A stretch of DNA of 35,548 bases, from IMG/VR virus record IMGVR_UViG_646564533_000012; one strand, given 5' to 3'. The stretch is from a virus. Taxonomy: Duplodnaviria; Heunggongvirae; Uroviricota; Caudoviricetes. Every line of letters starts with the position of its first letter. The first letter of the stretch is position 1. The position numbers were made by a program, and so were the translations under genes. The notes beneath the pieces were generated by a model that saw nothing but the letters and a program-made list of their open reading frames with translations, searched no databases and was not told the origin of the DNA. Positions 190 through 35,548 of the stretch are shown in pieces.

Positions 190-606
190 TCATTCGCTCC
201 CCTCTTTTTCCTTATTTCGTTGAACGCCAATTGCGACACACGTACTAAGCAAATCTTTACATTTCTCTACGTCTTCAGACTTACGCAATTTGATGCTTTT
301 TACAGACTGCGGGCTACTGTCCGTAGCACGATACATCGTTATTTCAATATCATTTCGGTCTAAGAGTCCCATAATGGCTTTTGCAACCTCCACACCCTTC
401 TTCGCGAAATCAAAGAACAGAGCAAGTTTATATGGATTTTCGACGGAAAAAACTTCAATTTTGCTAAAACCAACATCGTGTCGAGAAAAATATTGCTCAA
501 CCTCATCTCGAAGTTCTGGATCGCAGACAATGTCTATTCTCCAGTACTGACCTAAATGCAAATCGCTATTAACTGTTTTTTCCACAACATCCTCCTTACC
601 CAGCAA
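190..606 (-). CDS. hypothetical protein, AT-rich cargo gene coupled to int
   Basis: 138-aa track ORF whose start overlaps the int stop; strong AAGGAGG sits at the int stop, with an in-frame GTG about 5 nt downstream (alternative start near 585); visibly lower GC than the phage core; no recognisable motif. Confidence 0.55.
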   Translation of the reverse strand: MLGKEDVVEKTVNSDLHLGQYWRIDIVCDPELRDEVEQYFSRHDVGFSKIEVFSVENPYKLALFFDFAKKGVEVAKAIMGLLDRNDIEITMYRATDSSPQSVKSIKLRKSEDVEKCKDLLSTCVAIGVQRNKEKEGSE

Positions 607-8536: not shown

Positions 8537-9496
8537 ATGAAAATTTGTATCGACGACGGCTCCACCAACATCAAGCTGGCATGGACTGAGAACGGCGAAC
8601 GCCGCAACGCCATCAGCCCGAACAGCTTCAAGTCGGAATGGTCTGCGCCGTTCGGTGGCACGCAGCCCGCGAACTACATGCTTGATGGCGTGCGCTATGG
8701 TTTTGATCCGGTCAGCGATCGCTTTGTCCAGACGACCGACACGCAATACCAATACAGCGATGTGAATGTCATTGCCATTCATCACGCGCTGGTCAAATCA
8801 GGCATCACACCACAGGAGGTGGATGTGGTTGTCACCCTGCCACTGAGCGAGTATTTCGACACAAACGCACAGCCGGACATGGCCAACATCAACCGCAAAA
8901 AAGCGAACGTTATGCGCCCGGTGGAGTACCAGAACGGCGAAGCATTCACTATCCGTAACGTGCGGGTTATGCCTGAATCCATTCCGGCTGGCTTTAAGGC
9001 ACTGGCTGACATGAGTCCGTTTGAATCCCTGCTGATTGTGGATTTGGGCGGAACCACGCTGGATGTGGCAAAGGTTCAGGGGCAACTGGCAGGTATCAGC
9101 CAGGTGTTTTGCGATCCACACGTAGGCGTTTCTCTGATGGCCGATGCCGTACTGTCGGTGATGGCCACTAACGGTATGCGCACCAGTCACCACATCGCCA
9201 ATACCATTATCGAACATCGCCATGATGAAGCCTGGCTGCGCCAGCACATCCACAATGACGCGCATTACGACAGCCTGATGGCGGTTATTCGTGAAAAGGA
9301 AGAAACACTGAAACAACGAGTGATCCGCGCGCTGGCGGGTTTTTCGGGTTACGGGCGGGTGATGGTTGTCGGTGGCGGGGCGGAGATTGTGGCACCCGCT
9401 ATCCGCGAAGCCTGCGGAGTTAATGCGACTTTCATCGCGGACGGGGTGCCACAGTTTGCTCTGGTTAATGGGCTGTACGCAATGGACAAGGAGTAA
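8537..9496 (+). CDS. parM: ParM/StbA-like actin-type segregation ATPase
   Basis: N-terminus MKICIDDGSTNIKLAW matches the plasmid R1 ParM phosphate-1 motif; similarity continues (SPNSF, YSDVNV, HHAL, LIVDLGGTT); 319 aa. Confidence 0.88.
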   Translation: MKICIDDGSTNIKLAWTENGERRNAISPNSFKSEWSAPFGGTQPANYMLDGVRYGFDPVSDRFVQTTDTQYQYSDVNVIAIHHALVKSGITPQEVDVVVTLPLSEYFDTNAQPDMANINRKKANVMRPVEYQNGEAFTIRNVRVMPESIPAGFKALADMSPFESLLIVDLGGTTLDVAKVQGQLAGISQVFCDPHVGVSLMADAVLSVMATNGMRTSHHIANTIIEHRHDEAWLRQHIHNDAHYDSLMAVIREKEETLKQRVIRALAGFSGYGRVMVVGGGAEIVAPAIREACGVNATFIADGVPQFALVNGLYAMDKE

Positions 9497-9500
9497 ACCA

Positions 9501-9812
9501 ATGACGACACCAACCAGACGGATAAGTTTCTATCTGAAGCCCGCCGCCGTCAAGAACGAAGGCGAAGCATGCACCTGGCTGGACAGCCTTACACCAGAAG
9601 CCCGCAAAAGCGGCCAACGTGTGGCTTTTCTGGCCGGGCTGGCACTTCTGAAAATGAATCCGGCAGAGGCTTACCGACTGGCTGCATGGGCTGACGATGA
9701 GGCGTTATCAGTGACACAAACCAGGACAGAACGCCCCGCGTCACAGCCAGTACCAACCTCACAGATAACCAGTCGGATGGCCGGAAATATCAGGGCGTTA
9801 TTTCCCGAATAA
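9501..9812 (+). CDS. parR: ParR/StbB-like centromere-binding adaptor
   Basis: Track ORF trimmed to the Met behind AAGGAG (MTTPTRRISFYLKP...); ISFYLKP, WLDSL, AFLAGLAL and NIRALFPE align with R1 ParR; immediately downstream of parM. Confidence 0.78.
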   Translation: MTTPTRRISFYLKPAAVKNEGEACTWLDSLTPEARKSGQRVAFLAGLALLKMNPAEAYRLAAWADDEALSVTQTRTERPASQPVPTSQITSRMAGNIRALFPE

Positions 9813-34141: not shown

Positions 34142-34807
34142 ATGAATATGCAAATTTTTATCGCACCAGCAGCCACAGTTGCTGCAGTCTGCCTTGCTGC
34201 ATATTTTGCTTTACGAAATGAACGTAAAAAGAAAGCACTTGAGATTAGAACAACTCAACTAGATCGAATATCAGAGCTAGTAAACCGAGCATCTACCAAT
34301 TTGATGCAATATACAGGTACTCTTGCCTCTATACTGGAAGCGCACGCCAAAGATAATTATCTACCGAACAAAAAATTTGACATTAATGTAATTAGCAAAT
34401 GGAAAGATTGCCTCGATGAGAGTGAGGTCTGGGCGATTGATAGACAGCAACTAAGAACATGTCAGCACAGTCTGGAGTTTCATCGTGAAAAAGAATGGGC
34501 TGAATGGAAAAAAATAATTCCACCATTACTTGATAAAATTGACCAATTTTTTCTCATATCTAAGCCAGGGCAACCTGTTACGTTTATAAATGGCCAAAAC
34601 AAAACAGCTGATGAACTACTTGTTTTCTCAAGATATTTGAGAAAACAAACAGCAGAAATTGAATCAGTACGTCAGCTGTTACTTTCTCAAATGAGAGAGG
34701 AATTCATCGAGTTAACTAGCTTTGAACCTGTCACAATGTTTAGCTTATTTAAATCAATAAAGAAAAATGTCATGCAATTTTTCTGTATCAGTGCTCTTAA
34801 AAATTGA
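34142..34807 (+). CDS. hypothetical membrane-anchored protein, AT-rich cargo gene
   Basis: 221 aa with N-terminal TM helix IFIAPAATVAAVCLAAYFAL; markedly AT-rich against flanking D and ogr; own AT-rich upstream region and downstream terminator. Confidence 0.6.
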   Translation: MNMQIFIAPAATVAAVCLAAYFALRNERKKKALEIRTTQLDRISELVNRASTNLMQYTGTLASILEAHAKDNYLPNKKFDINVISKWKDCLDESEVWAIDRQQLRTCQHSLEFHREKEWAEWKKIIPPLLDKIDQFFLISKPGQPVTFINGQNKTADELLVFSRYLRKQTAEIESVRQLLLSQMREEFIELTSFEPVTMFSLFKSIKKNVMQFFCISALKN

Positions 34808-34956: not shown

Positions 34957-35217
34957 ATGTTCCGTTGTCCGCTTTGTGGCGCATCTGCCCGTATCCGCAC
35001 CAGTCGTCCGGAAAATGATTCAAACACCGTGCGGCAAAAGTATTACCAGTGTAACAACCTGGAATGCGGCGTATGCTTCTCAACACTGGAAGCTTTCCAT
35101 AAATTCACATCGAAACACGCCTCCGGCATCCACTCTTCAGAAGGTATCCCGTGGCATGAGCTGCCAGCTTCACACAGGGGAAACAATCAGATGAGCTTGC
35201 CTTTACCTCAGAATTAA
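34957..35217 (+). CDS. ogr: late transcription activator Ogr/Delta family zinc-finger protein
   Basis: MFRCPLCGASARIRTSR...YYQCNNLECGVCFSTLE matches the P2 Ogr C-X2-C...C-X4-C pattern; AAGGGAGG upstream. Confidence 0.9.
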   Translation: MFRCPLCGASARIRTSRPENDSNTVRQKYYQCNNLECGVCFSTLEAFHKFTSKHASGIHSSEGIPWHELPASHRGNNQMSLPLPQN

Positions 35218-35277
35218 CAGGCAGAATTGCCGGAGTAACAAAAAAGCGATAGATTACGCGCGGGTGCCTTTCGGCTG

Positions 35278-35490
35278 ATGGTCGGAGGGAATACCCGAAG
35301 GCCAGATGTGGAAAGGCCCCGGAAAACATCTCTGTTTAACCGAGGCCCTAACCGCATTACCTTGACAAGTGAAAGGTTAGCGCCTCTCCGGAAAAGGAGC
35401 AAGTGCTATGTCGCAAAAATCGCTTACGGCCATCACGTTCTGCGTGACGGCAATCCTCATCATCTGGATGTTGCACGGTTCGCTGTGTGA
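35278..35490 (+). CDS. mok-like overlapping reading frame of the hok locus
   Basis: 70-aa ORF starting upstream of and overlapping the hok-like frame, as in hok/mok/sok loci. Confidence 0.35.
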   Translation: MVGGNTRRPDVERPRKTSLFNRGPNRITLTSERLAPLRKRSKCYVAKIAYGHHVLRDGNPHHLDVARFAV

Positions 35491-35548
35491 AATACGGATG
35501 AGCTTCTGGGGAGCGGAGTTTGCGGCGTTCTTACAGTGTAAGCAGTAA
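35408..35548 (+). CDS. hok: Hok/Gef-family type I toxin (46 aa)
   Basis: MSQKSLTAITFCVTAILIIWMLHGSLCEIRMSFWGAEFAAFLQCKQ: one TM helix then the SLCEIR...AAF signature of Hok/Gef toxins; below the track cut-off; stop is the last codon of the window. Confidence 0.6.
   Translation: MSQKSLTAITFCVTAILIIWMLHGSLCEIRMSFWGAEFAAFLQCKQ

Follow-up and report, generated by a model that had tools for sequence, protein, structure and literature searches.

A probable hok/sok toxin-antitoxin module as phage cargo in the ogr-attR interval of a P88-like prophage

[quoted passage not shown] A hok/sok-type locus adjoining ogr had been proposed in an earlier note on this DNA, and this identification is borne out. 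However, two parts of that first interpretation have to be corrected: the existence of a mok gene is unsupported, and the combination of the toxin with a ParMR partition system, regarded then as unusual for a P2-like phage, is normal for the lineage. The question of whether the locus belongs to the phage or to its surroundings can also be settled, as hok sits firmly inside the prophage, where ogr and attP enclose a slot of variable cargo.

The hok gene (35408-35548, plus strand) starts with ATG, encodes 46 amino acids and has its stop codon in the last bases of the window. Its start lies 190 bp downstream of the end of ogr (34957-35217, plus strand), the late-gene activator (Pfam Ogr_Delta, 52.4 bits; annotated as ogr/Delta in Escherichia coli EC43). 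Because the window stops at the hok stop codon, it was extended with the chromosome of E. coli EC43, which is identical at both window ends (100% over the first 2400 and the last 1649 bases) and where the prophage sits between btuC and ihfA, adjacent genes in K-12. The att repeats, which the earlier note had suggested locating through both flanks and an empty site, could be mapped in this way. The longest direct repeat between the two flanks is a 25-bp core, AAAGAAAAAAGGCCGCAGAGCGGCC, present in one copy in K-12 and in two in the lysogen. The attL core occupies positions 59-83, within the ihfA terminator hairpin, and the attR core corresponds to window-equivalent positions 35810-35834, outside the window and 262 bp beyond its end. 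Agreement between the window and the K-12 empty site extends as far as base 83 and ends there; on the right, the EC43 flank agrees with K-12 again from the very start of the attR copy, and the K-12 empty site contains no hok. Since the att cores flank the locus and the empty site lacks it, hok lies with its whole 3′ UTR inside the prophage.

The contrary reading, in which the locus would be host or flanking-replicon cargo outside the prophage, owed its appeal to a window that ends at the hok stop codon with attR out of view, and it could also point to ETEC IncF plasmids that carry the ogr-hok pair without phage structural genes. The earlier note had named an attR core between ogr and the hok leader as the arrangement that would make hok host cargo; the attR core is found instead to the right of hok, past the window end, K-12 has a single att copy and no hok at the site, and hok occurs in packaged or induced phage genomes. 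The att mapping refutes this reading, which is left with next to no probability. Both marks of phage cargo (morons) are found at the locus, which lies between the att cores while being absent from the empty site, and travels with the phage genome: hok/sok is cargo of the phage, lodged between ogr and attR, and does not belong to the host DNA. The initial doubt is itself instructive. Prophage callers that cut at the last gene drop the 3′ regulatory half of the hok mRNA together with attR, and so such windows look ambiguous when they are not. Among 80 viral contigs with this locus, 47 end on the hok stop codon, as the window does, and a cut made at the last gene would account for the ambiguous look of the window.

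The element is a P88-like prophage (genus Xuanwuvirus, family Peduoviridae, P2-family). Bases 2339-23364 show 95-97% identity to phages PhiR44_2, P88, Shae_phiSM, Chuche and 520873, and the 749 bases at the right end match the same P88-like phages at 94-98%. The hok locus is present in the sequenced phages P88, PhiR44_2, Chuche, 520873, P884B11 and Shae_phiSM, where P88-like records label it as “MokW-like host killing”, as Hok/Gef or as a hypothetical protein. The order gpD - ogr - hok - attP is the same in P88 (hok being gp52, YP_009113095.1), PhiR44_2, Chuche, 520873, 500465-2, P884B11 and Shae_phiSM; compared with the window, the DNA of these Xuanwuvirus phages is 94-98% identical, Hok has no more than one substitution (A15V in P88), and most of them carry ParM. 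The window differs from them in having an extra AT-rich ORF of 221 aa between gpD and ogr, and the DNA between hok and attP varies among all of them. The viral contigs mentioned above are the best 80 matches, all with an identical Hok, a selection that makes them unusable to argue for purifying selection on the peptide; in 74 of them ogr is found ~194 bp upstream of hok. When the right-end segment (from the end of gpD to hok) is followed in E. coli genomes, 2214 of its 2231 matches are chromosomal, and in strain E2348/69 the segment is 99.7% identical.

The partition module lies far to the left of hok, with parM at 8537-9496 (plus strand; Pfam StbA_N, 275 bits, and ParM_N, the ParM C-terminal domain, 231 bits) and parR at 9501-9812 (plus strand; Plasmid_stab_B, 83 bits, within an ORF at 9366-9812). 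The start of parR was set by analogy to NZ_CP148288.1, where a 312-nt gene follows parM at a distance of 4 nt. Within the phage collection, ten P88-like phages have a ParM of at least 95% identity, six of them also showing the hok of the window, and ParM occurs elsewhere only in phage D6, at 48% identity. Thus, ParMR and hok are indeed found together, as had been noticed, but the combination of ParMR with ogr-hok is standard for the P88-like (Xuanwuvirus) lineage in public records, and not a quirk of the copy in the window.

The 46-aa product, MSQKSLTAITFCVTAILIIWMLHGSLCEIRMSFWGAEFAAFLQCKQ, shows the layout of its family, with an N-terminal hydrophobic segment, LTAITFCVTAILIIWML, followed by SLCEIR and then by EFAAFL. 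Its size falls within that of the Hok/Gef family (~45-55 aa) and it scores above the curated cut-off of Pfam PF01848 HOK_GEF (29.9 bits, cut-off 22, E 4e-7), and PHROG 251 (“MokW-like host killing”) aligns with its whole length (E 1e-22). An assignment as an orthologue of HokA, the nearest NCBIfam model, was rejected, as the 34 bits obtained are to be compared with an equivalog cut-off of 89. Identity to the Hok of plasmid R1, whose sequence was checked against a published table, is 39% over 31 residues, and that to the presumed sequence of E. coli K-12 HokA is 43% over the full length. SLCEIR and AAF are motifs common to the window Hok, R1 Hok and the presumed HokA sequence, and an alignment of five members of the clade leaves C12, C27, E28, R30, A39, A40 and L42 invariant. 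Upstream of the gene, a Shine-Dalgarno (SD) sequence, AAGGAG (35394-35399, plus strand), can be read 8 nt before the ATG, and it is kept as AGGAG or GGAGG in 88 of 89 related loci.

The peptide is not new. RefSeq lists the same sequence as WP_000078916.1 (“Hok/Gef family protein”), and it is also identical to peptide 72_1621 in the toxicity panel of Table S2 of a 2026 preprint (Escalera-Maurer et al., bioRxiv 10.1101/2025.08.07.668861), where it belongs, together with 72_1589, to Hok cluster 72 and was cloned and overexpressed. In that panel 42 of 45 overexpressed Hok peptides were toxic, and 72_1621 is not among the three non-toxic ones that are named; by this exclusion, and on the literature only, the Hok of the window is toxic. 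The same work catalogued 44,248 Hok homologues and found Hok to be encoded by 9.3% of Escherichia phages, with a four-fold prophage enrichment. It covers the coding sequence only, with mok, Sok, mRNA structure and the position between ogr and attP outside its scope. In short, hok/sok in P88-like prophages is already known from RefSeq, from a PHROG family and from a published Hok catalogue, and the discovery value of the present locus, an ordinary and catalogued feature of the P88-like lineage whose peptide has been tested before, is small.

What the locus does offer is a view of its RNA. The leader (35262-35421) matches the hok/sok family of Rfam, RF01794, with 48.4 bits (E 2e-9), a value that does not reach the gathering score of 59; the “sok” match falls on the hok-sense strand, so it marks the locus and not the antisense transcript. 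The start of this match gives the predicted 5′ end of the hok mRNA, a tac element, GGGUGCCUUUCGGCU (35262-35276, plus strand). The extended sequence carries, outside the window and 3′ of the hok stop, a GC hairpin (window-equivalent 35558-35579), an fbi element, GGUCGAUAAGGCACCC (window-equivalent 35598-35613, 50-65 nt beyond the window end), and a predicted intrinsic terminator of the hok mRNA (window-equivalent 35635-35671). The resulting 410-nt RNA, from 35262 to the terminator, folds with -177.8 kcal/mol (z -7.8), and in this fold nucleotides 1-15 (tac) pair with the fbi element in the 3′ UTR. This tac/fbi fold-back, which the earlier note had expected to appear on extending the window rightward, is the defining trait of hok mRNAs (R1 elements as in PMC9841398).

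Two alternative pairings are predicted for the 5′ region. A ucb-like box, AAAGGCCCC (35312-35320, plus strand), emerges as the alternative partner of tac from folds of the truncated mRNA and of its first 64 nt and from pair counts, and a switch hairpin (35342-35389, plus strand) joins GAGGC (35342-35346), which sits at the position of the R1 mok SD, with GCCUC/CUCC (35382-35389; dcb/anti-SD). In the full-length fold, CUCC (35386-35389) pairs with the hok SD, AAGGAG; when the RNA is cut after the first 3′ hairpin, tac is predicted to pair with ucb and GAGGC with GCCUC (35382-35386), leaving the hok SD unpaired. These predicted folds reproduce the logic of tac/ucb and SD/dcb in R1.

The pairings can be followed in related loci. 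We aligned nine loci with 73-92% identity, comprising P88-like, IncI1 plasmid, three Stx phage, two chromosomal and E. albertii plasmid types. In this alignment, 85.7% of the cells are paired, against 36-43% when the partners are slid by 1-3 columns, the tac helix pairs in 93% (tac/fbi) and 96% (tac/ucb), and the SD/CUCC and GAGGC/GCCUC helices are 92% and 96% paired, the percentages of pairing in the unshifted alignment being somewhat inflated by the derivation of the structures from one of the aligned sequences. Twenty-five pairs vary on both sides. The conserved pairings are invariant or change mostly one-sidedly, and the helices of the switch hairpin show no double compensatory changes. 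In viral contigs that reach past hok, the fbi variants GGCACUC, GGCAUCC and GGUACCC all still pair with GGGUGCC through G-U, and the first two scored 9/9 for pairing. The homology with Stx phages spans from ~35241, in the -10 region, to 35613, the end of fbi, and ~10 nt past fbi the viral contigs split into at least five unrelated contexts. This break in homology marks the right edge of the hok module, and the several contexts beyond it identify the stretch up to attP as a cargo hotspot.

The promoters are less conspicuous. A sigma-70 consensus scan of the locus at 9/12 called no promoter, at neither the hok nor the Sok site, so both are proposed from position and conservation only. The putative hok promoter (35227-35255, plus strand) would consist of a -35 TTGCCG (35227-35232), a 17-nt spacer and a -10 TAGATT (35250-35255); it fits 8 of the 12 consensus positions, and its -10 reads TAGATT, TAGAAT, TAAATT or TACATT in the readable relatives. 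On the opposite strand, a candidate Sok promoter (35374-35402, minus strand) with a -35 TTGCTC (35402-35397), a 17-nt spacer and a -10 TAACCT (35379-35374) overlaps the hok ribosome-binding site. The sok antisense promoter anticipated by the earlier note is found as a promoter-like and conserved sequence (TAACCT in 88 and TTGCTC in 84 of 89 related loci), albeit one that the 9/12 scan does not call. It would drive a Sok antisense RNA of ~57 nt (35310-35367, minus strand) with a predicted start near 35366 and a terminator hairpin at 35349-35313 followed by UUU (-28.5 kcal/mol, z -3.0). We take the positions of the Sok gene and its promoter to be homologous to those of R1 Sok, and by this analogy we infer a Sok antisense gene at the place it has in R1.

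A final regulatory question concerns ogr itself. A view of hok as an Ogr-activated late gene was dropped, as no Ogr-type TGT-N12-ACA site was found upstream of hok within 8 kb of the locus. However, the stretch from ogr to hok has no predicted intrinsic terminator, so transcription of ogr may still read through into the toxin gene.

The first interpretation also included a mok-like frame overlapping hok upstream. The Hok half of that claim is upheld by Pfam, PHROG 251 and RF01794, and the frame does exist as a 70-aa entry of the ORF list (35278-35490, plus strand), with hok in the mok frame +1, which is the frame relation of R1. Its standing as a gene, however, does not hold. The ATG falls within the tac stem, at nucleotide 17 of the predicted mRNA, and no Shine-Dalgarno precedes it; no canonical start is found 5-10 nt after GAGGC, where the mok AUG lies in R1, and the frame has no match among Pfam and PHROG protein families. 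An in-frame ATG, GTG or TTG upstream of hok is missing in six of nine diverged relatives and in 20 of the 80 viral loci with identical Hok. Over all 89 related loci, the mok-like frame is absent from 27. There is also a shared AUGUG site behind GAAGG from which an ORF spans the hok start in 62 of 89 loci, despite a 1-nt indel, but it never reaches hok in the five diverged lineages that retain an intact 46-aa Hok. In the diverged lineages (Stx phages, EDL933-like, STEC639, IncI1) there is either no in-frame start or a stop. A leader ORF at the AUGUG site as a conserved coding unit was rejected, since its length and frame differ between lineages. As judged from these sequences, the mok-like frame appears to be no more than what chance or shared ancestry would give, and mok as a gene in this clade is unsupported.

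A rival reading is an operation exactly as in R1, where the mok leader is translated, translation of hok depends on it and Sok prevents mok from being initiated. Besides the 70-codon frame with the R1 frame relation and the ORF through the hok start that is kept in 62 of 89 loci, the GAGGC box sits where R1 has the SD of mok. The start that should follow this box at 5-10 nt is nevertheless lacking, the ATG of the 70-aa frame is buried in the tac stem without an SD, all five diverged lineages with an intact Hok have no in-frame start or a stop, and in the predicted open form the SD of hok is itself left accessible. We regard R1-type coupling as possible, if on balance rather unlikely; judging from the folds, direct control of the hok ribosome-binding site would be the simpler reading, though not a proven one. 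This abundant phage-borne Hok clade, which appears to have all the R1-type RNA elements except a conserved mok, is a handy case for asking how universal mok coupling is.

Set beside the hok/sok (parB) system of plasmid R1 as a whole, the window shares the SLCEIR and AAF motifs, tac/fbi, ucb and the GAGGC/GCCUC hairpin (R1 elements per PMC9841398), as well as, in putative form, an antisense promoter over the hok SD with the same 17-nt spacing. The differences lie in the peptide, of 46 aa instead of 52 and 39% identical over 31 residues, in a leader that is ~30 nt shorter, in a clade without a conserved mok start, and in the carrier, an integrated phage instead of a plasmid.

The right edge of the window carries a genuine hok/sok module that is probably functional. 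We infer its transcript ends, Sok expression, 3′ processing and biological role, and propose a mechanism as follows. A weak promoter would yield an hok mRNA of ~350-410 nt, whose 5′ tac (35262-35276) and 3′ fbi would pair and lock the RNA, with the hok ribosome-binding site held by the upstream CUCC. Slow 3′ trimming would strip fbi, upon which the freed tac would pair anew with ucb, GAGGC would take the anti-SD, and ribosomes would gain access to the binding site of hok. A short and unstable Sok (~35367 to ~35310, minus strand) would pair with the leader of the open form, so that the mRNA is destroyed or silenced. If Sok synthesis stops, the pool of stable mRNA would be translated into the 46-aa membrane peptide, which would depolarise the membrane and kill the cell.

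Among the roles that such a module could have, we rank a killing or lysis helper on prophage induction in the first place, addiction of the host to the prophage in the second and abortive infection in the third. The only experimental phage precedent, and one for the first of these roles, is hokW-sokW of the Stx2 phage Sp5/VT2-Sakai, a phage-borne type I TA system whose toxin rises on prophage induction with mitomycin C and which is reported to double phage release (Takada et al. 2021, PMC8621323). In lytic growth, transcription from ogr could continue through hok and oppose the Sok promoter, a route that the absence of a predicted terminator between them leaves available and that would fit an induction-linked role.

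Abortive infection would work otherwise: a lytic superinfecting phage would halt transcription in the host, Sok would decay, and Hok would kill the cell too early for the invader to mature. R1 hok/sok is reported to exclude T4 (a work cited as reference 15 in bioRxiv 10.1101/2025.08.07.668861), and the slot beside attP holds variable cargo. Yet no PADLOC model matches Hok or the neighbouring unknown ORFs, and the same preprint reports no enrichment of hok near defence systems, so we consider this role unlikely. A further candidate role is post-segregational killing that, together with partition, would stabilise P88-like prophages as extrachromosomal, plasmid-like elements. ParMR and hok/sok do occur together in at least six P88-like phages, ParM is otherwise found in the phage collection only in the phage-plasmid D6, and one complete 34.5-kb P88-like genome has been deposited as a circular plasmid. 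Against these stand the chromosomal integration of the element, with intact integrase and att sites, the chromosomal location of 2214 of the 2231 right-end segment matches in E. coli genomes, and the single free phage-sized copy among the 72,556 plasmid records of PLSDB. The only replication gene recognised is a P2-type rolling-circle gpA, and a scan of eight ORFs revealed no plasmid replicon, so that the integrated copy in the window does not count as a phage-plasmid. All this makes a plasmid-stabilising role highly doubtful. Bolder still would be to propose that P88-like phages are facultative plasmid prophages, with hok/sok and ParMR stabilising the episome, and separately that the 46-aa Hok clade is controlled free of mok; these ideas, which derive from the one circular 34.5-kb genome and from the lack of mok in diverged members with an intact Hok, are speculative and we lend them little credence.

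It might finally be argued that the locus is a decaying, non-functional relic. Several hok loci of E. coli K-12 are inactive, and dead relatives of the present one do exist, through an 8-bp deletion in Stx2_EH2011 and through a stop codon behind the ATG in the copy on the E. albertii plasmid. In the window, however, the ORF, the SD, tac, fbi and both promoter-like sites are intact, the same DNA recurs in many genomes, and the identical peptide is toxic according to the literature, which renders a relic very improbable. The preferred reading continues to be an intact module with a killing or lysis function on induction as its foremost candidate role.

The comparison with hokW requires care. An equation of the Stx-phage relatives of the window locus with the published hokW was rejected, as hokW of VT2-Sakai is a separate 51-aa locus and not orthologous; the experimental results on hokW therefore apply to the hok of the window by analogy only. 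HokW of Sp5 is a HokD-like peptide of 51 aa, encoded within the 70-aa frame orf74, and shares 31% identity with the Hok of the window. Downstream of lom, the same phage Sp5 also has an unannotated 46-aa relative of the window Hok, with 74% amino acid and ~81-83% nucleotide identity.

An exact contig end on the hok stop codon, as in the window (35548), is shared by 47 of the best 80 related IMG/VR contigs (L014-L093), and contigs ending there lack both attR and the hok 3′ UTR with its fold-back element (fbi) and terminator. The stretch from fbi to attP, which we located in the E. coli EC43 chromosome identical to the window (L003 6715-6910, window-equivalent 35614-35809) and compared with loci L014-L092, is occupied by at least five unrelated contexts. 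P88 carries there a 243-nt ORF, PhiR44_2 two additional ORFs, and the record NZ_CP148288.1 a Com regulator together with a DNA methyltransferase. These comparisons mark the fbi-attP stretch as a hotspot for cargo.

The latter record (L094) is, over its whole extent, a complete P88-like genome from a cat E. coli, deposited as a circular “plasmid” of 34,461 bp, with the integrase, gpA, ParMR, structural genes, ogr and hok. No second free copy of phage size occurs among 72,556 plasmid records. The circle could be a replicative form after excision, or the phage in an episomal state. A second plasmid context was found in NZ_CP023347.1 (L095 6032-6623) and in some ten other ETEC IncF plasmids like it, of 142-165 kb, where an ogr-hok remnant encoding the identical Hok adjoins a group II intron, and where the annotation shows no phage structural genes over 6 kb to the left or right of the remnant. 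The killer module appears to have persisted after loss of the phage in these plasmids.

Some relatives of the locus (L008 and L012) are dead copies. In hok of Stx2_EH2011, 8 bp are deleted directly past the start; in the IncF copy of E. albertii, a stop codon follows the ATG immediately, and the alignment shows a gap of 15 columns (15 nt) inside hok. Phage VT2-Sakai (Sp5), for its part, harbors two hok loci (L096 20001-20309 and 32970-33182). One is the published hokW, of 51 aa, which lies within the 70-aa orf74 (“gef homolog”), while downstream of lom a second, unannotated locus encodes a 46-aa Hok, 74% identical to the Hok of the window. The published deletion of hokW-sokW would not have removed this second locus.

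On the minus strand, between attL and the integrase, a 138-aa ORF (window 190-606) has as its sole match PHROG 14142 (E 2e-69), a family labelled as of unknown function, and is thus a further conserved gene of the phage to which no role is assigned. Between gpD and ogr, a GC island of 35-40%, flanked by DNA of ~50-59% GC, holds a plus-strand ORF of 221 aa with a hydrophobic N-terminus (34142-34807), which gave no match in Pfam, NCBIfam, PHROG or PADLOC; present in just 8 of the best 80 related viral loci, it is a variable moron. Finally, a match to the Rfam model of STnc540, an enterobacterial sRNA, spans attR on the minus strand (L003 6867-6950), with a sub-threshold score of 35.4 bits (gathering score 38); it covers the att core, the terminator of ihfA and, on the phage side, ~44 nt. 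When the prophage integrates, it may change or remake a 3′ end, either that of a host sRNA or that of the ihfA transcript.
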